Source: Eledone cirrhosa
Taxonomy: Eukaryota
Assembly (NCBI GenBank): GCA_964016885.1
Contig: OZ024742.1
Location: 90,272,001 to 90,336,000 of the forward strand
Reading direction: 5' to 3'
DNA: 64,000 nt
The position numbers were made by a program, and so were the translations under genes. The notes under the pieces are model-generated. The model was not told the DNA's origin. It worked only from the letters and a program-made list of their open reading frames with translations, and ran no database searches. This document shows positions 10,746 to 64,000 of this stretch, piece by piece. Position 1 is the stretch's first letter; each line of letters begins with the position of its first letter.

Positions 10746-11505
<760 letters not shown>

Positions 11506-16567: not shown

Positions 16568-16570
<3 letters not shown>
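15820..16570 (-). mobile_element. Family A ~436-bp partial tandem with short inverted arm (16523-16570)
   Basis: Unit start recurs at 15868 and 16304; HHR at 16131-16171 (-); right end in (TA)n. Confidence 0.75.
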
Positions 16571-16620
<50 letters not shown>

Positions 16621-16623
<3 letters not shown>

Positions 16624-18717: not shown

Positions 18718-18800
18718 CATCAAGTGTAAATGTGTATCAACTTTACTCATATAGTTGCCAAATTTAAACAATATTAATATTCGCTTTTTTATTATTTTAG

Positions 18801-26794: not shown

Positions 26795-29090
26795 TATTCT
26801 GCCATGTATATGAAGAAATAGAAGGCAATAAATAGAGAATAAATTAAAAATTAATGAAAGAGTAATGATAAAGTAATGAAAAATGAAAATGGAAAATGAA
26901 AAATGAAAATGAAAAGTGAAAAATAAAAATGAAGATTCAAATAAAATAAGATAAAATGTGTGTGTGCTATACCCAATCTCTAGGTCAGAAATATGTCGGA
27001 TAAAGTTGTAGGAGGAACAAGATAGTAAAAGAATAAAACGAAATAGGATAATCAAATAAAATGTGTGTATTTTAACCAATCTCAACTTAAATATAAATAT
27101 AAGGTGATAATGCGAAGAAAACAGAAAACAAATAACAAATGAATAATGAGAAATCAAAAATGAAAAATCAAAAATCAAGTAAATTAAAATGTGTGTGTGT
27201 TATAAAGATGTTGGCCAAATTATAAAGGGTGTGTCAGAACCAATCTCTATGGCTTGAGGGGAGTTCCCAACCTATGGTGTTGTTACTGCCCATATAGCTT
27301 GAGGGAGGTCTGGCCGAGAGGTCTCTACATGTTCTGGAGATTCCCTATAGTTTGAGGGGAGTTCACATCTTATTGTGTTGCTACTGTCCATATATCTTGA
27401 GGAAGGTCTCGACCCTGAGGTGTCTGCATGTCCAGAAGAAGTCTGTTCTGAGGTTTATCAGGCCGCTTCCACCTCTTAGTATCTCGAGGGTCTCGTTCAG
27501 ACATAGTTTGCATATGCAAGATCCCGCTTTATCGGGTGGTACTTTCCTGATTATGGACCAGGCAAGAAAGTACGTGGTCCTGTCCAGCTTAAGCTTCCAT
27601 ATCAGGTCGGAGAGAGCCGTACTTTTCCGTTTGGCCTCCTTATTGAAGGAATGACGATGGTTATACCAGCGGTCTTTAAAGCTCGTTGATGTGGCTCCTA
27701 TGTAGAGGTGTTCGAAGTTGGGGGTTTTAACCCTACAACCGTATACTAGGTCCTTCTTAAGGCATTCATTACCAAGGTGTCATGATTCGGGGTTTCTGCA
27801 GTTTCAGAGGGTAGTCGATCTCTGCGTGCCTAGATTGGGGTTCCGTTAGGTGTTACATGGTGGTCTTCCCCCAGGCACGGTGGGGGTCCCCGGGTTTGTT
27901 TGGGTTTCTTGGGTGGGCACTGGAACCCCCTTTCTCTCCTTTCACATGGTTCTGCTGAGTGCTTGTATTGCCATCTTCTGGTTGTGTGTGGTTTTTAAGC
28001 CTACTCCTGTTGATGCTAGCTATGTGTTCGGCCAGATTTCTCGTGGTGGAATACGAGAGCTTCACAGTGTGTCTGTTGAAGATCTTGTGGTATCTATGGT
28101 CCCTCGGGAAGCATTTATAACACACACACATTTTATTTGATTATCCTATTTCGTTTTATTCTTTTACCATCTTGTTCCTCCTACCACTTTATCCAACATA
28201 TTTCTGACCTTGAGATTGGTTATAGCACACACACATTTTATCATATTTTATTTGAATCTTCATTTTTATTTTTCACTTTTCATTTTTCATTACTTTTTCA
28301 TTACTTTTTCATTAATTTTTCATTTATTCTCTATTTATTATTTATTTTCTGTTTTCTTCATTTTATTGCCTTCTATTTCTTCATATACATGGCAGAACCC
28401 CCCCCCCACACACACACACACACCACCACCACCACCACCACCACCACCACCACCACGGGAGATGGTGGCAGGAGGGTTGAAGAAACACACACACACACAT
28501 TTTATTCGATTATTTTATTTTATTTTGTTCCTTTACCATCTTATTCCTTCTACCACTTTATCATTTTTTTTTAGCTGACTCCAACAACAACACCACTACC
28601 AACATAAGAATAGTGGTCAGATGTATCTAACAATAACAAGAACAACAACTACAGATTGGCTTGCCTCAGAACGAATTTCTATAGACTTTTGACTGAGGAA
28701 TGTTCTAACAACTGACCAATGAGAAGAGAAGAGGCCCTTTGACGCTGAAATTCGTTTGTTTAAATTCATATGATTCCAGTTCCTCAGTGAAATAACAACC
28801 CAACCAGGAACTGGGCATATCAGAGTATTGACAAAGTTATACACCTCAACAACATGTGTACTCGTCTCTACCACACTAATTCGGACTGCCTGAAGAGGTC
28901 ACAGTCAAAGATGGCTGTCACCGAAATATATATAGCAGTAATAAACGAAGCCAAATTTTAAATATTTGACTTATTTATTTTATTTTATTTTACATTACTC
29001 CGGAGTAACCAAACCAACCTGCGCCCTTCGTCGAGTGCTCCAATCTGCATACTGAGGTGTTGGTATACAACCAACATAAACTCAAAAAAT
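26795..29090. mobile_element. PLE fold-back insert: - arm (26795-28115) with GIY-YIG, + arm (28115-29090) 3' UTR with HHR
   Basis: Minus: YHKIFNRHTVKLSYSTTRN, CLKKDLVYGCRV..HLYIGATSTSFKDRWYNHRHSF..CKLCLNE; 28115-28400 is the reverse complement of ~26800-27200. Confidence 0.85.
28885..28939 (+). ncRNA. Type I hammerhead ribozyme
   Basis: ACUGC-CUGAAGA-GGUCACAGUCAAAGAUGGCUGUCACC-GAAA-UAUAUA-UA-GCAGU; stem I 5 bp, long stem II, palindromic stem III. Confidence 0.85.
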
Positions 29091-32989: not shown

Positions 32990-34150
32990 AATGTCGCATC
33001 ATATCCCTCCGACAACATCTACGAACCTCGAAGCGTAGGAGCTCGTCTCTCGAGCAAGTCTATCTGCATGAATCAGATAAGATCATGAGAGGGAAGTCCC
33101 TCAGCAGTATCACAGTGAATCCATGGATGAAAAACTGCATGCTTATTAGCAAAAAATCATGCATGGATATGTTGCCAGGAAGCTCCAGTGTGAGAGTAAT
33201 ATAGATAAAGAAAGTAGTATATCTTGGACCAACAACCGCTATATTGGCTCCAACTTTGAAGGATACGCTTTTGCAATCCAAGAACAGGAAATCAACACGA
33301 AATACCTGATTCACAAAAGAGATAGGGATGCAGGCAAACCACCTAGATGTGCTAACAAGTGCAGACTCTGCAGAATTAACATCGAAGATATCACCCATGT
33401 CATAAGTAAAGATGTCATCGTGGTACTATCTACCTATGAGGTATGATGTAGTGGCCAAAACACTGTACAATGCAATCCGTAGAAAAGATAGCCCCGATAA
33501 TAAACACATTAAAAGCTATAGCAGCATGGAAGACATACACATACATAATATGAAAGAGTACTGGTGGACTGTTCCAGTAAAAACCCCAATAAAATACAGG
33601 CATAACAGACCAGATATAGTGATATGGGACAGGGAAAAGAAGGCATGCACAGTAGTGAAAGTTAGCTGCCCAACAGATGCCAATATAATATCAAAGATTA
33701 GCGAAAAGGAAAATATTTATGCAGAACTGATGAGTAATCTGCAGATACTCCACCCTGATTATACCTTCAGATTTATGCCTGTGGTTATTGGGGCACTGGG
33801 ATATGTTAGTAATTGCCTCAACACATATCTTGAGAAGCTGGGCTTCACAGGAACAGAAAGAACACTAGTTAGGAAATTACAAGTACAATCCATTACTGAA
33901 ACAGTAAAAATATGTAAAGCATTCCAAAAAAGTTGCATCTAATAACTGCATATACACATGTACAGATACAAAGCATATACACATGCACACATACAACTCA
34001 AAACATACACATCCACACATACAATAAAATTCATACCTACACATGAATGCGTGCTGTCATGCAGACATATCTACCTAGTTCATGTGTAAATTCCAATGAG
34101 ATAGTCTTGTATCTATGTTAGAAACCGACTCTCTCTCTATTGGCAAAAAT
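32990..34150 (+). mobile_element. R4/Dong-like LINE, C-terminal zinc knuckle + RLE and 3' UTR
   Basis: FAIQEQEINT, CRLCRINIEDITHVIS, MRYDVVAK, HNRPDIVIWDREKK, VVIGALG; between (CATA)n tracts. Confidence 0.85.
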
Positions 34151-34214
34151 GTGTGAAATTATAAAACCAGAAGAACATACATACATATATACATACATAC
34201 ATATATATATACAT

Positions 34215-36677
34215 ACTCCATCAGTCAACGCGATCAGTCGCATATTTTGCCGTGGGAGACTATTTATTAAATTTAAGATGAATACTATCTCCGACAGTAA
34301 TGCCACAACTACAGCCAGGTTGAATAATTGGTTATTCTTCTAACTATCCCTTCTGAAGACACCTTTTATTCGAATTCGTAGAGATATCCGACTAAATACA
34401 TAATTCATTTTACAAGGATTTGCTACAAACAGCATGGCTGAACACAAAATCAACAAGAAAATTAAGGAAGTATCGAAGACAAATAACAAAGAAGGTAATC
34501 AAACTTTATTCAGTTGTAGCTACAGAAGAAACCAAAATTATAAATGGCATTTCTCTTGGAGTTGCGAACTTAATAATGATTTATTTAATTGTTATAAAAT
34601 GGCAAAACACAATCCCTCCATTTGCTATATGAATAGAATGAAGCTACACTGGGACGAAATGCACCCAGAACTAAATTATTTCACAGCGAAACAATTACGC
34701 CAACAAGCGACGTTTGTTGAACGTAAAAATAAGATAAATATTATTAATTGTAAGTCCCCCACAACAAACATGGAATCAACAACATGTGCTACAGATCGCC
34801 ATGCTACTAGACTTCCTAGCAACCAGGTCGAACAGCGCCTTGAAACAACTATGCCTGTAAGAAACTTGACACCACCTGTACCATCTAAGTCTACCTCGAA
34901 TGCTGGGGAAAACACTATGGATAATAATAATAATCGAAGAAATAAAAATAATAATCGAATAAATGTGACACCACGTATACCATCCGAGTTTACCTCGACT
35001 GTTGTGGAAAATACTATCGATTATGATAATCAAAAGTATAAACAATTGAAAACTTCCCTCAACGAAAACTTTCAGGGAGAAATTAATTTATCTATAAATA
35101 TCTCTCTGACTGAACGTGTTAAAATGACAATGGTGAATAAAAAACCAAATAATGAAATACTACGTGTTATTGACGAAATAGGGGATGAATATTTACGACG
35201 GATAAAAACCCCAACATTTTGGCAAATCAACGCCTGTTTATATGCCTTAGCAATGACAGTGAAGCATTATCTTGGTGATAGCTGAGATATTAACAAGAAC
35301 AAACACCACCAAAAATACCATCATATATAACTAAAATAGAAAAAAAGAGTGCTGACCTACGAAAAAACATAGGACATGTGACAATGCTCCTTACATGCAA
35401 ACAAACACACAAAAAACACACTCCTCACCAACAAAGAGTGAAAAGTAAAATAGAGACGATGTTTGGTAACAGTAGAACCAGAACTCTCCAATATAAGCTG
35501 ATCACCCTCAAACAAGAATTGAGAGCTGTTAGCGAAAAATGCCGATACCTGAAGAGAGTAGATGAGAGAAAAATGCTTAATAAAAGATTCAGACGCAACC
35601 AAACAACAGTCTATAGAGATATGAAGGGCAAAATAATAAGCGTCACTGAGGCCCCATCCCAGAAAGACATAGATTCCTTTTGGAGAAAAATATAGGGTGA
35701 AAAGAAGAATTTCAACCAAGATACAGTGTGGCTAAGAGAAATCCGAAAGAACTATTGCTGCTACACTACAACAAAAACATACGAAATAAGTGAGGGTACC
35801 CTTGAGACTGTGATAGGAAAACTCCAAGATAAGAAAACACCAGGAAGAGACATGATTGTCGGCTACTGGTACAAAAAACTAATATTCTATCGGAGGTATC
35901 TTACTGACCTCTACCAACAGGTTCTTAAGAGAGATACACTTATACCAGAATGGTTGACATTAGCACAAACGTTACTGGTCCCCAAGAACAAAGACACCCA
36001 CTTGGCAAAAAACTACCAACCCATTCCATGCCAGAACCTGATGTATAAGATGTATACAGCCTGCCTGAACCTATTCCTCCAAGATCACTGTGAAAATAAT
36101 AACATCATCACAGATGAACAAGCAGCTGGAAAGAAAAGGGTTTGGAGATGTGCTGAACAACTCCTAATCAACAAAACTGCGATGTCGGAGGTGCAACAAC
36201 TTAGGAGGAATATGATTACAGTCTGGCTGGACTACAAGTAAGCTTTCGATTTTGTTCCCCACTCTTGGATGATAGAGGCCCTCCAACTTGCTAAAGTCCC
36301 AGCCATTATTGTCAGAGCCATAGAGAGGCTGTCTTCTTCTTGGGCTACTATCCTAAGTTTAAAGACAGAGAGGGAGGACTCTATTTTCACTGATAAAATA
36401 AAATATTGCAAGGGTATATTTCAGGGGGACAGTCTCTCTGTGATATTGTTCATCTTGTCATTAAACCCTTTGTCCTTTCTGCTCAAGAAATGTGAGGGAT
36501 ACATCACTGGCTCACAGGAGGAGAGAAATACGAACCTAACCCATAACTTCGTTGTGGACGATCTGAAACTCTATGCCAAGAACATGGATGGGATGAAGAA
36601 AAATCTTGACCTGGTTACAACGTTCTCAAAGGATTTAGGAATGGAGTTTGGCCAAGATAAATGCTCATACACTGCAT
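34215..36677 (+). mobile_element. R4/Dong-like LINE, N-terminal region and RT (disrupted)
   Basis: KTPGRDMI..WYKK, KNYQPIPCQN, VWLDYK, GIFQGDSLSVILFILSLNPLS, VDDLKLYA; several stops/frameshifts. Confidence 0.88.
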
Positions 36678-37018
36678 AAAGCCAGTCCCACTCTCTTAAC
36701 CAAGATGATATTTACCAAAAAGAAGAACAAGTCAACATCATTGGATACCATCAGGGTTGCAGGTGTTATATCAGAGTTTTCCTTCTCCTAGAATTCTGCC
36801 TTGACAAAGGCTAAGGGGTCATCTCTCCCGGTGATTTTGGATGGCCATTGACTCTTAAGAGCTCCTTTGCCCTTTGACAGGTTTTGTTTTTAGTCCTGCA
36901 GGATGTCCAAAGTCACCCTCCTCACCAAGAAACCTTGGTGGGGTTGCCAGTTTAGTCGCCAACGACCCGACCATGAGACAGGTTGTACTGGGATATATGT
37001 TACCAGTAGCACCAACTA
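36678..37018 (-). mobile_element. 5' half of the bipartite RTE-derived element
   Basis: Matches 32565-32825; directly abuts and truncates the R4-like RT. Confidence 0.7.
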
Positions 37019-37759: not shown

Positions 37760-40700
37760 ACAGCGCTGCGATCGAATGTGGCTTTTTAGCCCAGCCAATT
37801 ATCTAAAATGTCTTGCACAGAGTCGGCAACCAAAACATTCACTGGGAATAGTCGGCTGTGGTTGGAGTTCTTGTACTCTTGCATGTCGCTTGAGCCCTCC
37901 TGCTGATTTACATTCTCTACCACATGTTTGGCAAGCATGATGAGTAGCATCTCCAACAGCAGCCTGGTAGTCAACCACTGGTCTTACTTTATGACTGCGA
38001 AGATGACTTTCGAGTCCAGCTTTGCTTAGGCAGAGTCTCGCACAGACGCTGCATGTCAAAACCATAGGAGGACCCTCGCCGTCTGGAAGTGCAACAGCAA
38101 TGCCCTTCCTCACATCCCGCTTTACTTTCTCGTATGCGATTCGAGATGCCTCAAAGGCAACTTTTCCCTCATATACAGTCTTTCTCCATTTATTACGATC
38201 AGCAGCAATATTTTCCCATGTATCAGCAGAGATGTTAGCGTCTTTCAGAGAAGCTTTCAAGGAATCCTTATACCTCTTTTTTGGTTTATGTGGCGGTCGT
38301 TTTCCGTTAACTAACTCTCCATAAGAGTTAGTTAACGAGAGTTGTTTTGGTATTCTAGAATCCTTCATCCTGGCAAGGTGACCACTCCAACGGAGTCGTT
38401 GCTTAAGCACAAGAGCTTCTATACTGTCACACATAGAGCTTTCCAAAATCTCGACATCACTGATGTGGTCCCTCCAGTGAACGCCATGGATCCGTCTGAG
38501 ACACATCTGATGGAAACGCTCCAATTGCTTAAGGTGGTGTCGATATGTGACACAGGTCTCGCAGGCATAAAGAAGACAAGAGAGCACACATGCCCTGTAC
38601 ACCTTTACCTTTGTCCTCCTGCATATGTCTCGCCGACTCCAGAGTCGCCTTTCTAGCTTTCCGAAAGCATCACTTGCTTTCCTAATCCTAAGTGAAATTT
38701 CACTGTCAAGGTTGCTGTATCGATTGACACTGCTTCCCAGGTAGACAAACTGATCAACCACTCCAAGTCGTTTGCCATACACATAGATGTTTGGTTCAGT
38801 GTACTGCTTACCAGGGGCAGGTTGGTACATGACGACGGTTTTCTTGAGACTGACAGTCAATCCTAGGGCAGTGCAAGCGTCAGAAAATGCATTCAAAATG
38901 TGCTGCATATCACTCTCTGTGTGCGCTACAAGATCGCAATCATCTGCATACAAGAGGTCTCTTATGATTGATGTAAATACTTTTGTCTTCGCAGCAAAGC
39001 GCCTGATGTTAAATATGCTGCCTGAGGTTCGATATCGGATGTAACACCATGCTCGCAATTCCTGAATGCAATACAGAAAACCATTGCAAAGTATATGGCA
39101 AACAGGATCGGTGCTGGAATATCTCCCTGTTTCACTCCATTTTTTACTGAGATAGGCTTCGACATGTTACCTCCGACATTAACCCAAGCCTTCATGTCGT
39201 CATGGAAAGACCTAACTAAAGCAATGAACTTATCAGGGCAACCAAGTTTATGGAGAACCTTCCATAATGCATCTCTGTTAACAGTATCGAAAGCTTTTGT
39301 CAGATCGACAAAAACCTGATACAGATCCAAGCCTTGTTCCATGCACTTCTCCTTGAGCTGTCTAGCTGAGAAGATCATATCAGTAGTGCCGCGTCCAGCA
39401 CGAAAACCAGATTGACTTTCAGGAAGAACACAATCTGCAATGTGTGTCAGTAGACGGTCCAGAAGCACCCTACATAAAACTTTCCCTACGACAGAAAGTA
39501 ATGATATACCTCTGTAGTTCCCACAATCATTCCTGTTACCCTTTCCCTTGTACAAGACCACCATTACTGCATCTCTCCAGTCCTCAGGTACAGATTCATT
39601 AGCCCATATCCTGCCAAACAAAGAGTGAAGATGTTGCAGGAGTCTCTCACCACCATATTATAGGAGCTCAGCATGTATGCCATCCATACCTGGAGATCTT
39701 CCACTGTTCAGCTTCGAAATAGCCACTGCAACCTCCACAAGCGTCAGAGGTTCTGCGAGAGCTACTTTCACAGGACTTTCTGGAATGAGATTGAGGAAAT
39801 CTTCACTGACGACAGACGGCTGATTCAAAAGATCATCAAAGTGCTCTCGCCACCTTCGTAGAATTCCTTGTGAGTCACGAAGAAGTTCTTTGCCATCCTT
39901 GCTGCGAAGCGGTGTCACCAGAGAAGAAGACGGTCCATAAACCTCACGCAAGAGACTGTACAACAGCTTTGTGTTATTGGAATCTGACGCAGTTTGTATC
40001 TCACCAGCCTTCTCACTCCACCACTGATCCTTCATCTGAGAAAGACTCCGCCTAACACATGATTTTATATCCCTAAGTTCCTCATGCAACGTATTCCTCT
40101 CCTGTGGTTTTGCCGTCAAGTAGCGTGACAGAGCACGCCTCTTATCAGCCAACAATTCTTCTATATGTACATCATTCTCATTAAACCAGTCCTGATGTTT
40201 TCTCTGCACCAATCCCAGAACACGCCTGCCTACATCATAAACCGACTTTTTAAGGGTCGGCCAATCCTCACCAAGATCTGCAGCCTGCATCTCTTCTTCC
40301 AATGTCCTCTTCACATTTTTATCCTTAAGACGAACAGCATTCAATCTTTTGGGCAGGGCAACACCAGGAGCCCGGATTTTACGTTTAGTGATTAGTTTCA
40401 CTTTTGCGCGTACCAGGCGGTGGTCAGTCCAGTACTCAGCTCTACGAAGAGCACGAACACACTGCACATCCTGTCTGTCACGCATCCTGACTAGGACGTA
40501 GTCCAAAAGATGCCATTCCTTAGATGCAGGATGCATCCATGTGGTCTTGAATTTGTTCTTTTGTTGGAACATGGTGTTGGTAACACACAGATCCAGCTCC
40601 TCACACATCTGCAGCAGGAGCATACCATTGTTGTTACACTTTCCCACCCCATGCCTTCCGATTACATTCCATGTGTTAAAATCCCTACCCACTCTAGCAT

Positions 40701-41670
40701 TAAAGTCACCAAGCACGATGACTTTGTCTGCCTGAGGGATATTTCTTAAAACACATTTCAAGGCATGGTAAAAGGACACTTTTTCTTCATCGACAGAATT
40801 CATAGTTGGAGCGTACACACTCACCAGGGTAGCATATCTTCCTTTGTCCAGCGGAACTCTCATGGACATAAAGACGCTCACTAATCCCTACTGGGAATTC
40901 TTCTAATTTATTCACAAGTACAGTCTTAACAGCAAATCCTACCCCAGCCTCTCTTCTGGTTCCTTCATCTCTTCCTTTCCAGAAGAATGTATATTCTCCA
41001 CAAAATTCTGTAAGATGACCATCCCCAGCTAACCTCGGCTCAGATAAAGCCGCGATGTCAAGATCGTAACGTCGAAGCTACTTTGCAACAAGAGCAGTCC
41101 TTCGTTAAGGACGCTCCAAGGAATCCCTGTCAAGCAGCGTCCGTACGTTCCAGCAGCCAAGACTAAATGCCTTGTTTGGCTCTATTACAATGGCATGATG
41201 ACGAGCGGGCCCAGGATGTGATAACCTGGAGCCCCTGCCCTTATTGCCAATTATCTCTTTTATATTGTTCTGGAACATCATTGAATTGGAAAAAAAAAAA
41301 ATGTAATAATAATAGTAATAATAATAATAATAATAATAGTACACTATTAATAGTTATTAATGCACTCGTGCAATGCCTGTGCGTGACGAATATTTTTAAA
41401 GTGAGGAAAGACTGTGCACTGAGCCAATCCCACTCTCTGAGCGACAGTAGCTATAACCCGAAAAGAAGAAAAGAACAACATCATCGGTAACTACTGAGCC
41501 GCAGGTTTTATGTCGGAGTTAACCCAGTTTCCTGAGATGCCTTCTCCTAGACGAATGCCCTGACAAGGGCATTCTCCTAGAAGAATGCTCTGACAAGGGC
41601 TAGTGGTTCTTCACTGCCAGTGGTTTAACTGCGCGATCGGGCATCCAGCCCGATTATTTCTGTCCCCGCA
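37760..41670 (-). mobile_element. Near full-length RTE-clade LINE (APE endonuclease + RT + C-terminal C2H2 fingers), few disablements
   Basis: WNVRTLLD, VYAPT, LGDFNARVG, WHLLDYVLVR, WTDHRLV (APE); NYRGISLL, FVDLTKAFDTV, GVKQGD, LLYADD (RT); premature stops at ~41105 and 39658, frameshifts near 40885 and 39050. Confidence 0.95.
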
Positions 41671-43448: not shown

Positions 43449-45740
43449 AGTGTGGTTCGTAGTAGAGGAAATAAATTCGGTCAGTAGGAATGTGTGTGTA
43501 CGTGTGTGGGGATATTTTAACATGTTGAAAGATATTTTTCAGTTCTTGTCTTATACGGAGAAGTGTGTGTGTGTGTGTATGTCTGTGTGTATGTTAGAGT
43601 ACGCGTGTGTATGTGTGTGTATGTGTGTGTGTATGTGTGTGTGTGTGTGTGTGGATGGACCAGTATTTTTGTGATACTGGTAAAAATGGTGTACATTATT
43701 CGATATTTTCAGTAATTTGCAAAAAACGTTTCTTTCAAAAGAACATCAAAAACATTAATAATAAAAGGGGGGAAATAATGTATAGTATTGTCATAACACC
43801 AAGGTGTGTGTGAGTGTCCAGTTTGTGCGTACTGCAAGGGGAATCCATTAGGCCCTGCCGTATGGGAAAACTTGTGTACAAACATGTATGTGCCCATCAG
43901 TGTGCAATGCATGTGTGCGTAAATGTATGTTTGTGTGTCGGCACGTTTATATCTATAAACATCAAAAGGTATGCAAATTTGTGTATATTTGTGTTGCACC
44001 ATAGAACATGTGTGTTTACGTATGTCATTGTGTTTATATGTGGATAGAAATGTATGTAGGATGTATGCTGATGTAGGTATGTATGTTGACGTGTGTATGT
44101 TCGTCTTAGGGAGAAGTGTTTAGACGGGGTCGGTATTTGTTAATAAAGTGAGATTCCTTGCTGATGCGCTGGGTGTGGGTGGCATTATCTTTAAATTTGT
44201 AGAGGGGAAAGATTATAAAGTTGGGATGATTTTAGGCGGCACAGGTATTAATGTGTTCACTTAATGGTATTTTTCTGTATTCCCGTATTTTAATTTGGGA
44301 TCTATGGACAGTCATGCGTTGGCGGAGGCTCTTTTTGGTCTGGCCTATGTATTGTTCTCGACAACCTGAGCAAGTTAATACATACATTAGATTTTCTGAT
44401 GCGCATGTGAAATTGTGTTTTACTATAAAACGTTGTCCTTCTTTGAAATAGAATTCCGAACACTCTATTAGGTTGATGCGTATGCCACAGTTGGGTCTAT
44501 CACATTTTCTTACTGTGGGTTTCGTTGTTGTAGCTGGCAGTACTTTGGCATGTGTTAGGATGTTTTTCATTGACTTAGATTGTCTTTTGCTCTTTATGAT
44601 ATCGTGTGTTCGAAGGATTTGGTTCAATCTATGGTCCTTTGTTAACACAGGGATGTTCTGGAGGATGGTGTCAAAGGCCTCAATGTTGAGGGGTTGTGTG
44701 TGGAGATGTATGGAACAGCCAGCTTTTAGTTTCAGTCGATTTACTTTAGGGTGTCTAAGGTTCTGGGTACTGAGTTTTAGGGCACGTTGGATTCCATTGT
44801 CAATTAGTGATGCAGGGTAATCCCTACCTATGAGTATGTCCTTTAATTCTTGTAGCCGTAAGTAATAGGTGTTTTTATTGGAGACTATAGTAGAGATTCT
44901 CTTGGCTAAGTTGTAGGGAATATTAATTTTAACGAGTCTAGGGTGGCAAGAGTTGAAAGGAAGATATTGCTTAGAGTCTGTGGGCTTGTAGTATATGTCT
45001 ATTTCTATTTTTTTGTTATGAATCTTAATGAGGATGTCGAGGAAGGGCAGTTGTTGATGGCTGTATTCCATCGTAAAGTTAATATTCGTGTTGAGCCCAT
45101 TTATAAGGGTGTGAAATTCTTTAAGTTTCTCGAAGTTTTCGTGCGACAGGATGAAGCAGTTATCTAGGTATCGCTTCCAGTTCTTTTCTATGTGTAAGTA
45201 GAGAGTGTTTCCAAATTTGTTTAGTACTTTAGTGTAGAGGGTGATTTCCAACTATCCCATGACTAGGTTGGCATAAGTGGGGGCTGTTTTCGTTCCCATG
45301 GCGGTCCCAGATTCCTGCCTGTAGGATTTGTTATTGAAAACGAAGTAATTGTTATCCAAGATAAATTTGAGTCCTTCTATCACGAATTCTTTTTTGATGC
45401 GTTGTTGGAGTTCGTTGTGGTAATTATCCTGCCAGAATTGGAAAGCTTATATTCCTAGGGTGTGGGGGATGTTGGAGTGTAGGTTGTCTACATCGAACGT
45501 CACTAGTAGGGTTTGTTCAGAAAGGGGCATAATAGGGAGGTGATTGAGCATATCTAGGTCGTCCCTTATATCGCTTTTGATGTGTTTGAGAAAAGGTTTG
45601 AGAAGGGCATCAATGAAGTTTCTAAGGCGGTGGGTTTCGCAAGCGGGGCCTGCTATTATAGGTCTTAATTTGAGATCATTGGGTGAGGGGACATTGATGA
45701 GTATGTCTGTGGCTTCCTTGCATGCCTTACTTATTAATAT
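42860..45740 (-). mobile_element. Penelope-like element (Neptune-like), 5'-truncated
   Basis: 339-aa ORF: WKRYLDNCFI, LPFLDILI, YYKPTDSKQYL, CDRPNCG, FTCASENLMYVLTCSGCREQYIGQT (GIY-YIG); upstream MGTKTAPTYANLVMG. Confidence 0.92.
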
Positions 45741-45954
45741 ATGTATTAACTTGCTCAGGTTGTCGAGAAAAATACATAGGCCAGACTAAAAACAGCCGAA
45801 TATATTATCTACGTATAGAACAGTTTATACAAATTAATTAAAATGATAAATCAAGGTATACAAACCGACCATAACTATTAACACCCAGGCAAGTTCAGAA
45901 TAAAGCTATGTTGGGCAATTAAGTGAAGACATATAGATCAGGTATTGCTCGTCG

Positions 45955-48760: not shown

Positions 48761-51251
<2,491 letters not shown>

Positions 51252-51828: not shown

Positions 51829-52902
51829 TTAAAACAATGAAATAAAAAATCATGTTATTATAGATATACATCACTGCTTTACGAGCGTTTCTAGATGGTC
51901 ATAATACATTGTATCTATACTTATACACAGTTATTGATCTATGTAAGTTTACAAACTATCAGATAGAGAGAATATTTACTTACATGCATATCACCAGCTG
52001 TTTTCAAAAGCAATAATAATTTTATTCAATAATAATTTTACTCAGAATTAGTATTATGTCCATATTTGGAGGTAGTTAAAGAACTAACGAATCAAATTGT
52101 TTTTTTCATATGGTGTTAAGACGAAAAGTAATACACTTTAGTTGAGGTCATGACCCTTTGAAAGAAGTGGTTGAAAGGTGTTAGTAGAGATGGCATAAAA
52201 ATCTATTAGGAAGGAAGTGGATTGTCAAACTGATAGTTGAATGTATCTTGTATAGTGAATTTAAAAGGAATGTCAAAATAATTGGTGATTAGTGTTGAAT
52301 TGAGTTTTAAGGTGAATATAAATATATTTTGACATTCCTTTTAAATTCACTATACAAGATACATTCAACTGTCAGTTTGACAATCCCCTTCCTTCCTAAT
52401 AGATTTTTATGCCATTTCTACTAACACCTTTCAACCATTCCTTTCAAAGTGTCATGAACGCAACTAAAGTGTATTACTTTTCATCTTAACACCATATGAA
52501 AAAAACAATTTGATTCGTTAGTTCTTCAACTACCTCCAAATATGGACATGATACTAATTGTGAGTAAAATTAATATTGAATAAAATTATTATGCTTTTGA
52601 AAACAGCTGGTGATATGCATGTAAGTAAATATTCTCTCTATCTGATAGTTTGTAAACTTACATAGATCAATAACTGAGTATAGATACAATGTATTATCAC
52701 CATCTAGAAACGATCGTAAAGCAGTGAAGTATATCTCTAATGAGTTCATTTTTTATTTCATTGTTTTAACTTATATCATGACTCTGTTTTCCTTTTAATG
52801 TGTTATTGTTTTCTGCGATTTATCTTAACCTACAACATTTTCAACACATGGATTACATTGAGTTCTTCATACATAATAGACCCCAGAACTTACAGTAGAT
52901 AC

Positions 52903-52908
<6 letters not shown>
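51826..52908. mobile_element. Non-coding fold-back element (family E): - arm 51826-52275, + arm 52330-52908
   Basis: Arms are reverse complements with scattered differences; each has an HHR-like fold (51875-52012 -, 52592-52723 +); (TA)n both sides. Confidence 0.8.
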
Positions 52909-52977
<69 letters not shown>

Positions 52978-52978
<1 letters not shown>

Positions 52979-55900
52979 ATATAATGAAATGACAGGAGGC
53001 TGGATTTGTGTAAATCCTTGAAAGGTTTATTATACTATGATAATTTCAATGACCGGGTTCCGTATGAATCCGGTGATATCATCAGGTATTCGAAATATAA
53101 AACGTCAATGTAATAGATGAAATCCATGGGGCTCAAAATCGAGGACCTGAGGGCGATCGCTATCCTGTACCTTCTACCTTAGCCGGTCGCCCTCGAATGA
53201 CGTGGCTAAAGCTTACAGTGTGCTACTACCGGTCAGATAAAGGAAAACAGAAAGGGATGGGAACATAAGTTAGCGTTAATCTCATGCCACAAGACAAAAG
53301 AAAGAAAGAAAGGAGGGAGAGAGAAGAAGGGGGAAGGAAGAAGAAGAGAAGCCAGGGTTAATGTCAGCTATAAGAAGAAAGACAGAAAGAAGAGGAGGAA
53401 AGGTCGGTATTACAGTTAGGCCAGAATTGTCGCGAGGAAATTGTTTTTTTATTCTACGGGACCCGTATCTAAACAACTACTAGCGGTCAGATATAGGCAA
53501 ACAAAAAGGGGGAAGGAAGATAAGTCTGTGGGAGGAAGACAGAAAGAGGGGAGAAGAGAAGGAAGAGAATGAAGAAGTAGAAAAGTAAGGGTTGGTGGCT
53601 ACAAGAAGGAAGATAGAAAGCAAGAGGAAGAAAGGTCGATATTAATGTCAGACTACAGTCAGGCCAGGAGTGGCGCGAGAAAATTTTTACAGGGACCCGT
53701 ATCTTAGCAGAGGTGAATATATTGGGGGTCAGTGTGTTATAATGTGTGATCAGAATATTGGAACGTTACGTTTTTGTTTAGACTTATAGGATGAGGTTGA
53801 AAAAATTAATAATTAATATTTAATATTAAAGAAATTAGAAAATTTAAAGTTAAGCAGTTTAACATTTTAAGGTTGATATATCTAATAGTTCTGATTTGAT
53901 CTGTAATTTAAAGGTACTATGTGGCGGTTAAAACACCGGCCGCGCTCCGGGCCCCCGGAGCGAATTAAACCACTCCGAGTAGTTTCATTTACCGAAAGAA
54001 GGGGAAATTTATTTTCCCAAGCACTCAAGGTAGGCCCATGCACCAGGGGGCTGGTCGCGCCGCCATTCAAACCCACCCAACAGTCCGACAGAAAGTTGGA
54101 ACTTTAAAATATTGTTTAAATTTATAGGATGAAGTTGAAAAGATTTATAATTAATATTTAATATTAAAGAAATTAGAAAATTTAAAGTTAAACAGTTTAA
54201 CATTTTAAGGTTGATATATCTAATAGTTCTGATTTGATCTGTAATTTATAGGTACTATGTGGCGGTTAAAACACCGGCCGCGCTCCGTGCCCCGGGGGCG
54301 AATTAAGCCACTCCGAGTAGTTTCATTTACCGAAAGAAGGGGAAATTTATATTTCCAAGCACTCCAGGTAGGCCCATGCTCCAGGGGGCTGGTTGCGCCG
54401 CCATCAAAACCCGCCCAGCAGTCCGACTGAAAGTTGGAACTCTAAAATCTTGCTTAAATTTATAGGATGAAGTTGAAAGAATTTAGAATAAGATTATAAA
54501 ATTAAAGAGTAAGAAGATTGAGTATTGAACAAACAGAAAATTGAAAATTAAACATTTAAAAAAACTTCTATGAGGTTTTGGGTTGCGGGGTTTAATTAAA
54601 GAGAGTCTTTTATGAAAAAACGCTAATTGTATTATGTAGATCTATAATTTATCCTAGTGGGATGTAGAGTACGGGATATAGTCGTGTAATATTTATTTTT
54701 GTTCTCAGGGGAGACATTCTAGTGTCGTGTGCTAATGGGTACAAGTGAGCAAAAGTCCCAATAGGAGGAGTAGAAATACATGGATACATAGAAGTGGAAT
54801 ACGTGGAAGAGCACATTGATAAAGCAAAGGTATAAATATATAAACATATCAATATATAGATATAAATATGTAAATAAAGCAATAAGAGTGGTGTTGGAGT
54901 AAGATGGAGAAATCAAGACATAGGAGAAGTACAATATAGTTCAGGTTGCAGTATTTACCACTTGACAGAGCTGGTCTATTCCGTATTGTCAATCCTAATG
55001 TAATAATATAGAGAGTACTCAACGTAAAGCAATTCAACCGTCTTTGTTTTTGTAGTTGGTGGTGCTATTACGGAGTTAAATATTATAATGAAATGACAGG
55101 AGGCTGGATTTGTGTAAATCCTTCAAAGGTTTATTATACTATGATAATTTCAATGACCGGGTTCCGTATGAATCCGGTGATATCATCAGGTATTCGAAAT
55201 ATAAAACGTCAATGTAATAGATGAAATCCATGGGGCTCAAAATCGAGGACCTGAGGGCGATCGCTATCCTGTACCTTCTACCTTAGCCGGTCGCCCTCGA
55301 ATGACGTGGCTAAAGCTTACAGTGTGCTACTACCGGTCAGATAAAGGAAAACAGAAAGGGATGGGAACATAAGTTAGCGTTAATCTCATGCCACAAGACA
55401 AAAGAAAGAAAGAAAGGAGGGAGAGAGAAGAAGGGGGAAGGAAGAAGAAGAGAAGCCAGGGTTAATGTCAGCTATAAGAAGAAAGACAGAAAGAAGAGGA
55501 GGAAAGGTCGGTATTACAGTTAGGCCAGAATTGTCGCGAGGAAATTGTTTTTTTATTCTACGGGACCCGTATCTAAACAACTACTAGCGGTCAGATATAG
55601 GCAAACAAAAAGGGGGAAGGAAGATAAGTCTGTGGGAGGAAGACAGAAAGAGGGGAGAAGAGAAGGAAGAGAATGAAGAAGTAGAAAAGTAAGGGTTGGT
55701 GGCTACAAGAAGGAAGATAGAAAGCAAGAGGAAGAAAGGTCGATATTAATGTCAGACTACAGTCAGGCCAGGAGTGGCGCGAGAAAATTTTTACAGGGAC
55801 CCGTATCTTAGCAGAGGTGAATATATTGGGGGTCAGTGTGTTATAATGTGTGATCAGAATATTGGAACGTTACGTTTTTGTTTAGACTTATAGGATGAGG

Positions 55901-58900
55901 TTGAAAAAATTAATAATTAATATTTAATATTAAAGAAATTAGAAAATTTAAAGTTAAGCAGTTTAACATTTTAAGGTTGATATATCTAATAGTTCTGATT
56001 TGATCTGTAATTTAAAGGTACTATGTGGCGGTTAAAACACCGGCCGCGCTCCGGGCCCCCGGAGCGAATTAAACCACTCCGAGTAGTTTCATTTACCGAA
56101 AGAAGGGGAAATTTATTTTCCCAAGCACTCAAGGTAGGCCCATGCACCAGGGGGCTGGTCGCGCCGCCATTCAAACCCACCCAACAGTCCGACAGAAAGT
56201 TGGAACTTTAAAATATTGTTTAAATTTATAGGATGAAGTTGAAAAGATTTATAATTAATATTTAATATTAAAGAAATTAGAAAATTTAAAGTTAAACAGT
56301 TTAACATTTTAAGGTTGATATATCTAATAGTTCTGATTTGATCTGTAATTTATAGGTACTATGTGGCGGTTAAAACACCGGCCGCGCTCCGTGCCCCGGG
56401 GGCGAATTAAGCCACTCCGAGTAGTTTCATTTACCGAAAGAAGGGGAAATTTATATTTCCAAGCAATCCAGGTAGGCCCATGCGCCAGGGGGCTGGTTGC
56501 GCCGCCATCAAAACCCGCCCAGCAGTCCGACTGAAAGTTGGAACTCTAAAATCTTGCTTAAATTTATAGGATGAAGTTGAAAGAATTTAGAATAAGATTA
56601 TAAAATTAAAGAGTAAGAAGATTGAGTATTGAACAAACAGAAAATTGAAAATTAAACATTTAAAAAAACTTCTATGAGGTTTTGGGTTGCGGGGTTTAAT
56701 TAAAGAGAGTCTTTTATGAAAAAACGCTAATTGTATTATGTAGATCTATAATTTATCCTAGTGGGATGTAGAGTACGGGATATAGTCGTGTAATATTTAT
56801 TTTTGTTCTCAGGGGAGACATTCTAGTGTCGTGTGCTAATGGGTACAAGTGAGCAAAAGTCCCAATAGGAGGAGTAGAAATACATGGATACATAGAAGTG
56901 GAATACGTGGAAGAGCACATTGATAAAGCAAAGGTATAAATATATAAACATATCAATATATAGATATAAATATGTAAATAAAGCAATAAGAGTGGTGTTG
57001 GAGTAAGATGGAGAAATCAAGACATAGGAGAAGTACAATATAGTTCAGGTTGCAGTATTTACCACTTGACAGAGCTGGTCTATTCCGTATTGTCAATCCT
57101 AATGTAATAATATAGAGAGTACTCAACGTAAAGCAATTCAACCGTCTTTGTTTTTGTAGTTGGTGGTGCTATTACGGAGTTAAATATTATAATGAAATGA
57201 CAGGAGGCTGGATTTGTGTAAATCCTTCAAAGGTTTATTATACTATGATCATTTCAATGACCGGATTCCGTATGAATCCGGTGATATCATCAGGTATTCG
57301 AAATATAATACGTGAATGTAATAGATAAAATCCATGGGCTGAAAATCGAGGACCCGAGGGCGATCGCTATCCTGTACCTTCTACCTTAGCCGGTCGCCCT
57401 CGAGTGAAGTGGCCAAAGCTTACAGTGTGCTACTACCAGTCAGATAAAGGAAAACAGAAAGGGATGGGAACATAACATGACCGGTAGTAGCACACTGTAA
57501 GCTTTGGCCACGTCACTCGAGGGCGACCGGCTAAGGTAGAAGGTACATGATAGCGATCGGCCTCGGGTCCTCGATTTTCAGCCCCATGGATTTCATCTAT
57601 TACATTCACGTATTATATTTCGAATACCTGATGATATCACCGGATTCATACGGAACCCGGTCATTGAAATGATTATAGTATAATAAACCTTTCAAGGATT
57701 TACACAAATCCAGCCTCCTGTCATTTCATTATAATATTTAACTCCGTAATAGCACCACCAACTACAAAAACAAAGACGGTTGAACTGCTTTACGTTGAGT
57801 ACTCTCTATATTATTACATTACGATTGACAATACGGAATAGACCAGCTCTGTCAAGTGGTAAATACTGCAACCTGAACTATATTGTACTTCTCCTATGTC
57901 TTGATTTCTCCAACTTACTCCAACACCACTCTTATTGCTTTATTTACATATTTATATCTATATATTGATATGTTTATATATTTATACCTTTGCTTTATCA
58001 ATGTGCTCTTCCACGTATTCCACTTCTATGTATCCATGTATTTCTACTCCTCCTATTGGGACTTTTGCTCACTTGTACCCATTAGCACACGACACTAGAA
58101 TGTCTCCCCCTGAGAACAAAAATAAATATTACACGACTATATCTCGTACTCTACATCCCACTAGGATAAATTATAGATCTACATAATACAATTAGCGTTT
58201 TTTCATAAAAGACTCTCTTTAATTAAACCCCGCAACCCAAAACCTCATAGAAGTTTTTTTAAATGTTTAATTTTCATTTTTCTGTTTGTTCAATTCTCAA
58301 TCTTCTTACTCTTTAATTTTATAATGTTATTCTGAATTCTTTCAACTTCATCCTATAAATTTAAGCAATATTTTAGAGTTCCAACTTTCTGTCGGACTGC
58401 TGGGTGGGTTTTGATGGCGGCGCAACCAGTCCCTGGCGCATGGGCCTACCTGGATTGCTTGGAAAAATAAATTTCCCCTTGTTTCGGTAAATGAAACTAC
58501 CCGGAGTGGCTTAATTCGACCCGGGGGCCCGGAGCGCGGCCGGTGTTTTAACCGCCACATTGTACCTTTAAATTACAGATCAAATCAGAACTATTAGATA
58601 TATCAACCTTAAAATGTTAAACTGTTTAACTTTAAATTTTCTAATTTCTTTAATATTAAATATTAATTATTAATTTTTTCAACTTCATCCTATAAATTTA
58701 AACAATATTTTAAAGTTCCAACTTTCTGTCGGACTGTTGTGTGGGTTTAATGGCGGCGCGATCAGCCCCCTGACGCATGGGCCTACCTTGAGTGCTTGGA
58801 AAAATAAATTTCCCCTTCTTTCGGTAAATGAAACTACTCGGAGTGGTTTAATTCGCCCCGGGGGCCCGGAGCGGCCGGTGTCTTAACCGCCACATAGTAC

Positions 58901-59977
58901 CTTTAAATTACAGATCAAATCAGAACTATTAGATATATCAACCTTAAAATGTTAAACACTGTTTAACTTTAAATTTTCTAATTTCTTTAATATTAAATAT
59001 TAATTATTAATTTTTTCAACCTCATCCTATAAGTCTAAACAAAAACGTAACGTTCCAATATTCTGATCACACATTATAACACACTGACCCCCAATATAGT
59101 CACCTCTGCTAAGATACGGGTCCCTGTGAAAATTTTCTCGCGCCACTCCTGGCCTGACTGTAGTCTGACATTAATATTGACCTTTCTTCCTCTTTCTTTC
59201 TATCTTCCTTCTTGTAGCCACGAAACCTTACTTTTCTACTTCTTCATTCTCTTCCTTCTCTCCTCCCCTCTTTCTGTCTTCCTCCCGCAGACTTATCTTC
59301 CTTCCCCCTTTTTGTTTGCCTATATCTGACCGGTAGTAGTTGTTTAGATACGGGTCCCGTAGAATAAAAAAAAAATTTCTTCGCGACAATCCTGGCCTGA
59401 CTGTAATACCGACCTTTCCTCCTCTTTCTTTCTGTCTTTCTTCTTATAGCTGACTTTAACCCTGGCTTCTCTTCTTCTTCCTTCCCCCTTCTTCTCTCTC
59501 CCTCCTTTCTTTCTTTTGTCTTGTGGCATGAGATTAACGCTAACTTATGTTCCCATCCCTTTCTGTTTTCCTCTTTCTGACCGGTAGTAGCACACTGTAA
59601 GCTTTAGCCACATCACTCGAGGGCGACCGGATAAGGCAGAAGGTAGAGGATAGCGATCGCCCTCGGGTGCTCGATTTTCAGCCCCATGGATTTTATCTAT
59701 TACATTCACGTATTATATTTCGAATACCTGATGATATCACCGGATTCATACGGAACCCGGTCATTGAAATGATCATAGTATAATAAACCTTTCAAGGATT
59801 TACACAAATCCAGCCTCCTGTCATTCCATTATAATATTTGCTCCGTAATAGCACCACCAACTACAAAAACAAAAACGGTTGAACTGCTTTACGTTGAGTA
59901 CTCTCCGTATTATTACATTACGATTGACCATACGGAATAGACCAGCTCTATCAAGTGGTGAACCTCAAACCTGAATA
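52978..59977. mobile_element. 7-kb ORF-less HHR element: ~2.15 tandem copies of a 2104-bp unit (sense -, 52978-57476) head-to-head with ~1.2 copies (sense +, 57477-59977)
   Basis: Short ORFs repeat at exactly +2104; the inverted arm repeats at 2100; five HHR copies; (TA)n at both ends; no RT/EN motifs seen. Confidence 0.88.
59724..59781 (+). ncRNA. Type I hammerhead ribozyme of the 2.1-kb unit (also 57624-57681 +; 53032-53089, 55136-55193, 57240-57297 -)
   Basis: AUAC-CUGAUGA-UAUCACCGGAUUCAUACGGAACCCGGUCAUU-GAAA-UGAUCA-UA-GUAU; stem I AUAC/GUAU, stem II ACCGG.UUC/GAA.CCGGU, palindromic stem III AUGAUCAU. Confidence 0.78.
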
Positions 59978-60984
59978 TATATATATATATTTATATATAT
60001 ATATATATTATTCAATTTAGGAAAGTTTGTTGATCATTTAATCCGCTGACGTTTTTTGTAAACGGACATAAAGCACTCTATAAAATATCATTTTCGTTTA
60101 TTCTAACTTTATTTGATTTTGTTTTTTTTATTTTCTAATTTAATTTAATTGTTTGATAATATAGTTAATATTACAATTGATGTAGAGAATATAAAACACA
60201 TACAAATGCTCAGATAGATGAGAACCGAACTCACCGAAACTGGAAACTAAAGGAACTAGAATTTATGCTCAGTGCATGGAATTGAGCTAATGGCTCCCTT
60301 TCAAACAAGCTAATTAAGGATGCCCTACAAAGATGTGGCTTTCTGAGAACTTGGGCACAGCTACAACTGAAAAAGAACGAATTTATTCGTGCCTACTCGC
60401 TTGTTCTGCTACACGTGGATCAGTTGAGCCACATTTGGTCAGAGGAGACAAAAGAAGAAGGGGAAGAAGTCGAAAACTAAGAAAAACAAAGTTCCTGGGA
60501 AAAAGAAGGCCCAGGTTCTCTGTGAATTCCACAAGAAAGTGACCTGTTAGCATAGGGCGTCTGGGACAAACTGCGGGTTTGCAAGTCGCACCCATCCTGC
60601 TTATGCCAACTACCCAAGCCAAAACCAACATGTGCAAACAATACAGTGCACAGGGTCACTGTCCAGGATGTATGCTGAGGTTGTACGCACTCCCCTGATG
60701 ACGAGAAGGAAGTATACAGAAGCAGTACAGAGTTTTAACTGGATAAAAGGACTTTTTTTTTAATAACGGAAAAGATAGTGAGACAGATGACTTAGCTTCG
60801 TCAACTACAAAGCCAAATTCAGTCACATCAACACTCGCGACCACCACAAATAAAAGAGCTGGTGTGGCCGCTTCTGATACCCACGCAAGTGCCATATAAG
60901 CAGCCACCACTGATCCCTAAAATGTCACACTAGTGCTACTAGTAAATGATCTTCTAACTGACACTCAGTATGGCTTTCGTCCGG

Positions 60985-62454: not shown

Positions 62455-62534
<80 letters not shown>

Positions 62535-62543
<9 letters not shown>

Positions 62544-63692
62544 TATAATACATATATTCATATACATATAATATATATATTACATATATATTCATATATA
62601 TATATCTTATATGCAATATGTTGAAAAGGTAACACACTAGAGAGAGAAAGTGTGCCATCAATAAAACAGGGAAAACCACCAGTGAATGGAATCTATAACT
62701 ATGGAAGGCAGGGTATACACACAATAATTAAAAATATAAATTAAAATGTATATACGCACCTCTATAATTATATAACACACGCGTACAAATCCAAAGTGAT
62801 CTCTTTCGCCAGGAAGTTGTTGACTGAAATACAATAGCCTAGGGTTCATCAGCGCGTACTAGACTATACATTCCAGGCAACTCTAAGATAATCTAAAGCG
62901 ACCGTCCAGCTACACGCGGCAGAGAGATCTCACAGCGTGTTTAGGAAAGTGAAGCAGTGGTATCTGAGGGACGAGCTGCTAGAAAGGGCAGCCCAAAAAC
63001 CACTCAAAGAAGTGTGATGAACCAAACAGAGAGAGAGAAAGGAACGTTGTTATAAGGTGCGAAATATCACGATAAATTAACGGAGCCATAGACTCTCCAG
63101 GATTCCTTTTCCTTTGAGCACATTATTGACAGGGAATAACAAGAGTCTATGGCTCCGTTAATTTATCGTGATATTTCGCTCCTTATAACAGTCTTTCCTC
63201 TCCCTTTGTTTGGTTGAGCACACTTCTTTGAGTGGCTTTTGGGCTGCCCTTTCTAGCAGCTCGTCCCTCAGATAGTACTGGTTCACTGCCCTAAACACGC
63301 TGTGACATCTCTCTGCCGCGTGTAGCTGGACGGTCACTTTAGATTCTCTTAGAATTGTCTGGAATGTATAGTCTAGTATGCGCTGATGAACGCTAGGCTA
63401 TTCCATTTCAGTCAACAACTTACTGGCGAAACAGATCTCTTTGGATTTGTCCGCGTGTGTTATATAGTTATAGAGGTGCGTATCTACATTTTAATTTATA
63501 TTTTTAATTATTGTGTGTATACCCTGCCTTCCATAGAGTATAGATTCCATACACTGGTGGTTTTCCCTGTTTTATTGATGGCACACTTTCTCTCTCTAGT
63601 GTGTTACCTTTTCAACATATTGCATATAAGATATATATATATGAATATATATGTAATATATATATTATATGTATATGAATATATGTATTATG

Positions 63693-63700
<8 letters not shown>
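62535..63700. mobile_element. Non-coding fold-back element (arms 62535-63095 and 63143-63700) with an HHR in each arm
   Basis: Arms are reverse complements with scattered substitutions; (TA)n both sides. Confidence 0.85.
63377..63457 (+). ncRNA. Type I hammerhead ribozyme with a full intramolecular stem III (partner copy 62778-62858, -)
   Basis: UAUGCG-CUGAUGA-ACGCUAG...CUGGC-GAAA-CAGAUC-UCUUUG-GAUUUG-UC-CGCGUG; GUC triplet. Confidence 0.8.
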
Positions 63701-63737
<37 letters not shown>

Positions 63738-63740
<3 letters not shown>

Positions 63741-63918
63741 TTAAAACAATCAATTGATTTTTTATTTCATTGTTTTAACTTATATCATGACTCTGTTTTC
63801 CCTTTAATGTTTTATGTTTTCCGGGATTTATCTTAACCTACAACATTTTGAACATATGGATTACATCGAGTTCTTCATGCAGAATAGACCCCACAAGTTA
63901 CTCTGGATACTTCTGTGT
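63738..63918 (+). mobile_element. Miniature family E fold-back insert
   Basis: 63758-63918 matches 52748-52908; preceded by a short inverted arm AAGTTAAAACAAT; (TA)n both sides. Confidence 0.75.
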
Positions 63919-63919
63919 G

Positions 63920-63981
<62 letters not shown>

Positions 63982-64000
63982 ATTGGAGGCTTAGTAAAAT

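Follow-up and report, generated by a model that had tools for sequence, protein, structure and literature searches.

What moved a hammerhead-bearing repeat that encodes no mobility protein into a (TA)n tract of the Eledone cirrhosa genome, and why does it lie there partly in tandem and partly inverted? The locus is found in the right part of the window, as the whole analyzed stretch of 64,000 nucleotides is called here (assembly GCA_964016885.1, contig OZ024742.1, positions 90,272,001–90,336,000 of the forward strand). It consists of two head-to-head arms built from a ~2.1-kb unit, lacks open reading frames (ORFs) of mobile elements, belongs to a family present in public sequencing runs, and features a defined 3′ tail joined to (TA)n. 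From these observations we infer a helper, an RNA, and an order of events: the element is probably a Penelope-like element (PLE) of the non-autonomous kind, whose template would be a linear RNA left mostly uncleaved and copied in trans; it would have entered (TA)n as a head-to-head pair, and a duplication at the DNA level would have followed later. By analogy with known PLEs, the helper is likely a PLE reverse transcriptase (RT)/GIY-YIG endonuclease acting in trans.

Anatomy of the array

The left arm (52976–57475) contains a 2104-bp unit 2.14 times (4501/2104), as judged by self-BLAST, and carries its hammerhead ribozymes (HHRs) in sense on the minus strand. The right arm (57478–59975) contains an inverted 2100-bp unit 1.19 times, with the HHR sense on the plus strand. 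Self-BLAST also aligns 52976–55372 with 55080–57475 at 99.3% identity and a period of 2104, and the inverted copy 57478–59837 with the left arm at 96.4%. In addition, the right arm has a terminal repeat of its own of 406 bp (57478–57883 versus 59578–59980, 94%). The arms meet with their 5′ ends at the center, and the 3′ ends of both abut (TA)n. Each copy is laid out as a 5′ module, a body, and a 3′ module with the hammerhead inside the module; the terminal modules of ~0.3–0.4 kb are pseudo-long terminal repeats (pLTR-like) and enclose ~1.7 kb of non-coding cargo. The features of the array are as follows, with X1 and X5 denoting public runs and B another organism label.

52910–52983, no strand: (TA)n target on the left, overlapping the last AT bases of the element
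52976–53268, minus: 3′ pLTR-like module of the left copy; short end ~110 nt past the HHR core start, no tail
53032–53089, minus: type I hammerhead L2, with the palindrome of helix III broken; cleavage predicted after 53036
53269–54956, minus: body 2 of the left copy, non-coding cargo, 99.8% identical to body 1
54957–55372, minus: hybrid middle module; upstream of HHR +43 equal to the left 3′ module, from +65 equal to the left 5′ module
55136–55193, minus: type I hammerhead L1, its palindrome likewise broken; cleavage predicted after 55140
55373–57060, minus: body 1 of the left copy, from self-comparison
57061–57475, minus: 5′ pLTR-like module of the left copy, beginning 183 nt before the HHR core
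57240–57297, minus: type I hammerhead L0, with its palindrome preserved and a perfect distal helix II of 9 bp; cleavage predicted after 57244
57476–57477, no strand: head-to-head junction with 2 unmatched nt; the left arm exceeds the right by 32 nt
57478–57860, plus: 5′ pLTR-like module of the right copy, beginning 151 nt before the HHR core
57624–57681, plus: type I hammerhead R0, its palindrome weakened; cleavage predicted after 57677
57861–59577, plus: body of the right copy, with a ~250-bp segment (tandem in other copies), an AT-rich stretch, 338-bp repeats, and pyrimidine-rich repeats
58287–59065, plus: internal 337/338-bp tandem repeat, ~2.3 copies, ~90% alike; also at 53751–54508 and 55855–56612
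59129–59590, plus: old pyrimidine-rich ~245-bp duplication, ~70% alike; 94-bp deletion variant in runs X1 and X5
59578–59975, plus: 3′ pLTR-like module of the right copy, ending ~248 nt past the HHR core start
59724–59781, plus: type I hammerhead R1, its palindrome preserved; cleavage predicted after 59777
59960–59975, plus: 16-nt terminal tail, unlike the internal continuation; one contig of organism B (X5, place 54957) passes from this tail into (TA)n as well
59975–60008, no strand: (TA)n target on the right

This anatomy agrees with the original prediction, which had described ~2.15 copies of a 2104-bp unit joined head-to-head at 57476/57477 to ~1.2 inverted copies, with both outer ends in (TA)n; the internal 338-bp and ~245-bp repeats and the distinct 16-nt tail at the right end were absent from it. 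The left end is ambiguous within ~52976–52984 because (TA)n overlaps the terminal AT bases of the element. Measured from the HHR cores, the two 5′ ends lie 32 nt apart and the two 3′ ends ~140 nt, compared with the usual 30–40 nt. At its start, the body resembles the 3′ end of the module in degenerate form, which suggests that the body is DNA captured between two solo modules. The AT-rich stretch, the 338-bp repeat, and the pyrimidine-rich duplication fold not markedly better than chance. The GC-rich part of the 338-bp repeat was considered as an element resembling an internal ribosome entry site or as a second ribozyme and discarded, with z scores of −0.70 and −1.35 and no match in Rfam. Neither a tRNA head nor a poly(A) or repeat tail of its own was found in the element.

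A 170-bp repeat ending in (TA)n occurs at 52739–52975 and 63748–63983. The first of these is the left flank of the element, which hence may sit in the TA tail of another repeat.

Hammerheads, coding capacity, and family

The five type I cores (CUGAUGA...GAAA...UA|) start at 57293, 55189, and 53085 on the minus strand and at 57628 and 59728 on the plus strand, one per unit as the original prediction had counted. They run in the order helix I, CUGAUGA, helix II, GAAA, short helix III, UA|, helix I. Helix I comprises 4 bp; helix II is long and opens with U.U where G10.1-C11.1 would stand. Only two of the five cores have an intact 8-nt palindrome as helix III (57293 and 59728, with a predicted dimer duplex of −7.2 kcal/mol); it is weakened at 57628 (−2.8 kcal/mol) and broken at 55189 and 53085 (+2.2 kcal/mol). 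A hammerhead descriptor matches five times in the array and matched 7 of 5000 base-shuffled units. The Rfam scan does not report the array hammerheads even at E≤1, and its other matches are TA or hairpin noise. The HHRs of PLEs likewise combine a short helix I with a long helix II and a helix III that is palindromic, and their activity is low (PMC4209133). Axolotl HHR_Amex2 tolerates such a U.U pair where helix II begins (PMC7229834). The single metagenome match of the hammerhead pattern (L001) lies in a contig with glycosyltransferase-like ORFs, has an unpaired helix I, and was set aside as a chance match; a pattern scan of viral contigs gave 0 matches.

The longest stop-free frames of the array encode 92 aa (left unit) and 119 aa (right). 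Of the 102 ORFs listed, 35 were compared with Pfam, most of them in the right copy, and none reaches E<0.02. Profiles of Hydra-clade PLEs, built from 65 and 13 of 150 Hydra-type proteins, have no match in the array; the same profiles did detect three PLE remnants elsewhere in the window. Profiles were of Hydra type only, and tblastn used window fragments as queries. Weak tblastn matches to the GC-rich repeat (E 0.018–0.1) were treated as noise. Between the modules, no RT or GIY-YIG ORF as carried by autonomous PLEs (Hydra, Neptune, Poseidon, Naiad) occurs in six frames, so that the lack of RT and GIY-YIG motifs noticed earlier is borne out by both the Pfam and the profile searches.

The element is a member of a dispersed, polymorphic multi-copy family found under three organism labels, with homologues in organisms B and C. 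Part of the unit is contained in six runs from three studies, with at most 0.38 of its words and none recorded as RNA. Four of nine listed runs (X1, X5, X6, and X7) were aligned to 54171–55854, that is, one unit minus ~1.25 copies of the internal repeat, and cover 30, 28, 25, and 30 of 30 bins, respectively. In X1, 3014 contigs align across all identity classes. The two bins around the hammerhead are the deepest at 435–687 thousand, compared with 2–20 thousand for the body away from the AT-rich stretch, all as summed contig depth, which differs from copy number; this points to numerous short 3′ modules. One contig of organism B in X5 bears the same 16-nt tail followed by (TA)n as the right end of the array. 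Other copies vary in structure by the 94-bp deletion and by a tandem form of the first ~250 bp of the body. Pile-ups of reads at 55079/55082 in X7, a run of restriction site-associated DNA, were considered as a common short 3′ end and left unused because they face both ways and other pile-ups match the restriction site. A further 6000 reads of X7 clipped at 54212 match over only ~35 bp and were ignored.

Origin of the array

Partial tandems, inverted 5′-truncated copies, a tail at one end, and a bias for (TA)n are hallmarks of PLEs (PMC8557442). The array features the set expected of a non-autonomous member: no RT/GIY-YIG ORF; a partial tandem of pLTRs with an adjacent inverted 5′-truncated copy; a defined 3′ end with a one-sided tail; a PLE-type type I HHR in the pLTR; and a dispersed multi-copy family inserting in microsatellites—(TA)n here and in the one contig of X5. 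Hydra-clade PLEs carry hammerheads and target (TA)n (PMC8557442), and with remnants of this type in the window, they are the leading, unproven candidates for the helper.

In the proposed course of events, the family would have been born from two solo hammerhead modules and the intervening DNA, which they captured. Its RNA would begin ~150–185 nt before the first hammerhead, read through both, and be ~2.5 kb long, linear, and largely uncleaved; the non-identical terminal modules and the clustered 5′ ends argue for such an uncleaved linear template. The promoter of Penelope lies in the pLTR (PMC2377424). A PLE enzyme would cut (TA)n and, by priming on both strands or by self-priming, insert a head-to-head pair of copies at once, only one end of which bears a tail. 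In vitro, the Anolis PLE extends both strands, has two internal start sites, and does not depend on HHR cleavage (PMC11167929). Both copies would then have drifted by ~1.5–2.5% each. The 2104-bp unit would have been duplicated much later, when the 5′ and 3′ modules of the left copy recombined unequally.

The original prediction had explained arrays of more than one unit by rolling reverse transcription of a monomer or circle of ~2.1 kb, released by cleavage from hammerhead to hammerhead. Such a giant retrozyme would be copied repeatedly by a PLE RT, or assembled by its jumps between ribozyme-cut ends, with arrays in phase with cleavage. This origin appears quite improbable. One circle read repeatedly would give the same sequence after every cleavage site, and the difference between R0 and R1 of the right copy at 13/200 positions after these sites contradicts simple rolling; between the two 5′ modules, L0 and R0, 3/200 positions differ. 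L0, L1, R0, and R1 differ star-like at 10–14 of 255 positions and L1 from L2 at 1. The 5′ ends cluster upstream of an uncut HHR, and two random ends on a 2104-nt circle fall within 32 nt by a chance of ~0.03. The circular monomer folds with −0.19 kcal/mol per nt (z −0.85 versus 20 shuffles), whereas retrozyme circles are highly self-paired (PMC7229834). HHRs of PLEs cleave poorly, and in Anolis, no read ends at the site. Among 309 variant rows, 40 were shown and 27 checked, with 13 of mixed frequencies left out. The minority letter occurs in the left copy alone in 20/27 rows, 19 of these 20 being common to its two tandem units, and in left and right together in 7/27, two of which may stem from cross-mapping of the 338-bp repeat. 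By this pattern, the two arms appear to be sister copies that diverged once inserted, the left unit having been duplicated later. The letter that breaks the palindrome is among those common to the left tandem units and hence stands in the duplicated monomer itself (dimer duplex +2.2 versus −7.2 kcal/mol), which points to a later duplication or a misassembly. On these sequence comparisons, a rolling-circle origin of the array is not supported. Speaking for ribozyme-cut templates, the left array reads as 5′ piece, monomer, monomer, and 3′ piece, with the switch in a 21-bp interval (HHR +43 to +65) around the cleavage site, a coincidence of ~0.07 by chance; the 3′ piece at the right belongs to the type that is abundant in the family and differs from the internal piece, which a template jump could produce; the axolotl hammerhead tolerates the same U.U pair; and a circular route has been proposed for PLEs (PMC4209133). 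It is likewise improbable that a PLE RT joined unit-length RNAs cut by the ribozyme, linear or circular, by jumping from one template to the next at the cleavage site, in which case the left array would be the direct footprint. Three features of retrozymes are missing here: a short monomer, a highly self-paired circle, and arrays repeating one circular template—for the last of these, the left tandem looks post-insertion, though its phase leaves doubt. The earlier idea of a retrozyme-like parasite of PLEs thus keeps an ORF-less, HHR-bearing, multi-copy element of PLE-type layout and target, likely moved in trans, and loses the single circle as source of the array.

The hybrid middle module is the product expected of unequal crossover between 5′ and 3′ modules, and the extra tandem unit likely arose by later DNA duplication, not by copying an RNA circle. 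It is unlikely that the element is real and the extra left unit (54957–57060) is an assembly duplication: the units differ at only 2/2104 positions outside the 5′ module, as such an artifact would produce, but the two differences exist, and the hybrid module fits unequal crossover. Very doubtful is a reading in which the unit is the long 3′ untranslated region or spacer plus pLTR of an autonomous PLE that is always 5′-truncated here. Spacers of 0.9–1.5 kb do precede the 3′ pLTR in Pen1_Av (PMC3846280), loose ends upstream of the HHR vary among other copies, and the first ~250 bp of the body are preceded by themselves in such copies (joints 54956 to 54708), so that longer forms exist; against this, both copies, 3.4% apart, have the identical module–body junction, which indicates that the ORF-less form was itself the template, and the six frames hold no PLE remnant. 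Finally, the hammerhead could be the passenger of a non-PLE mover, either RTE or R4 long interspersed elements (LINEs) or a rolling-circle DNA element. Remnants of RTE-like and R4-like LINEs, named from their translations, occur in the window, and internal tandem repeats are common in Helitron-type non-autonomous elements. This is exceedingly improbable since the characters of PLEs are assembled here: the head-to-head inversion, the one-sided tail, a 3′-proximal type I HHR, and (TA)n next to either 3′ end. The element also has neither a poly(A) or repeat tail of its own nor a tRNA head.

Several points weigh against the trans-copied PLE with later duplication as well. No autonomous element sharing the module occurs in the 64-kb window, and scans of sequence collections gave nothing relevant. 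A target-site duplication is unreadable within (TA)n, and no microhomology is seen at the head-to-head junction. The aligned pieces of other copies are all shorter than the full stretch (the longest listed <260 nt), with the full arrangement unseen in them, and the depth at the hammerhead counts contigs in sum and not copies. The minority letters may partly reflect another population or species, as the runs contain ≤0.38 of the words. The switch of the left duplication falls in the very interval that holds the cleavage site.

Related systems and other features of the window

Every component of the element has precedent, and it is a large version of a kind already known. The closest layout is that of Adineta vaga, where foreign DNA—Pen3a-NRPS, non-coding DNA, and Pen1 spacers—was captured between solo pLTRs and moved in trans (PMC3846280). 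The direct plus inverted pLTRs and the near-equal 5′ ends at the inverted junction are shared as well; in Pen2a_Av, the inverted pLTRs are 37 bp shorter than the direct ones (PMC3846280). In contrast, the captures in A. vaga are single events with target-site duplications and only a pLTR is inverted (PMC3846280), whereas here, the whole element is inverted and the cargo form appears amplified as a family. Active non-autonomous elements are known from Chlamydomonas as Chlamys (PMC9940879, bioRxiv 2022.05.23.493040). Like the present element, Chlamys MRC1 and Chlamys-N4 are ORF-less and feature pLTRs, head-to-tail copies, microsatellite targets, and many short 5′-truncated insertions; unlike it, they are algal, target (CA)n or (C)n, mostly lack a canonical HHR, and have a known partner (PMC8557442, PMC9940879, bioRxiv 2022.05.23.493040). 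With Hydra-clade and other C-terminal endonuclease-bearing PLEs, the element shares the HHR near the 3′ end, (TA)n, tandem and inverted insertions, and a tail (PMC8557442). It differs from them in lacking an RT or GIY-YIG ORF, and a sequence link to a named family was not found.

Animal non-LTR retrozymes resemble the element in being non-coding and low in GC (38%), with one type I HHR per unit, a relation to pLTRs, and a likely mobilization by PLEs; they differ from its unit of 2100–2104 bp, its not unusually structured sequence, and its non-identical terminal modules (PMC7229834, bioRxiv 2026.07.22.740005). Retrozyme monomers measure 150–450 bp and form self-paired circles (PMC7229834). A survey deriving retrozymes from pLTRs reports 51–972 bp at a tandem period limit of 1000 (bioRxiv 2026.07.22.740005), and tandem searches limited to 1 kb would miss elements of the present size. 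In the open-access literature searched, which excludes Repbase-type libraries that may hold some, no kilobase-sized, HHR-bearing, non-autonomous PLE family of animals was found; one supplement file of PMC8557442 has 0 matches for non-autonomous families. The element fills the gap between small retrozymes and full PLEs as a kilobase-scale, hammerhead-bearing, ORF-less family seemingly amplified in animals. It implies that a PLE enzyme would need no more than a ~0.4-kb module to mobilize 1.7 kb of unrelated DNA repeatedly, and the locus bears on whether PLE hammerheads cut the RNA of transposition. If a 2.1-kb retrozyme were true instead, its unit would be several times larger than that of any reported animal retrozyme and represent a natural vector of 1.7-kb cargo for the PLE machinery.

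A second head-to-head insertion lies between (TA)n tracts at 62498–63738, with arms 92–99% alike, a 138-nt spacer, and hammerhead-like cores at 62852 (minus) and 63383 (plus)—the same layout at smaller scale. Nine further type I hammerhead-like motifs (1565, 2848, 16166, 17069, 18338, 28890, 30565, 61148, and 62264) belong to several families, most with a palindromic helix III; 30546–30618 matches Rfam HH9 at E 2e-4. PLE-derived modules thus seem to be plentiful in this genome. A nested inverted family with a hammerhead-like core occurs at 766–2283 and 15820–16622, and its TA-rich hairpin arms yield spurious miRNA matches. Left of the element, at 52002–52603, lies a seemingly perfect foldback with 279-bp arms 94% alike and a 44-nt spacer, in which a hammerhead core was not found.

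Decayed Hydra-clade-like PLE remnants of RT/endonuclease are located at 14208–15472 (plus), 27390–28122 (minus), and 49197–50490 (plus, with an inverted piece). The proteins they match carry a CxCx5C linker (113/150) and a DKT/DKS motif (13 of 20 long ones). Other decayed PLE remnants lie on the minus strand at 44232–45785 (GIY-YIG, Pfam E 0.004), 4907–6952, and 9723–10860. Two decayed LINEs, which their translations suggest to be R4-like and RTE-like, occupy 33060–36679 (plus) and 37799–40887 (minus), respectively. The segment 29470–29600 may resemble the tail of an octopus short interspersed element. The sole host-like coding piece seen in the window is an ORF or exon at 18755–19510 (plus), in which cysteine repeats of Galaxin type (PF24748, E 8e-23) precede a Pro/His-rich repeat.

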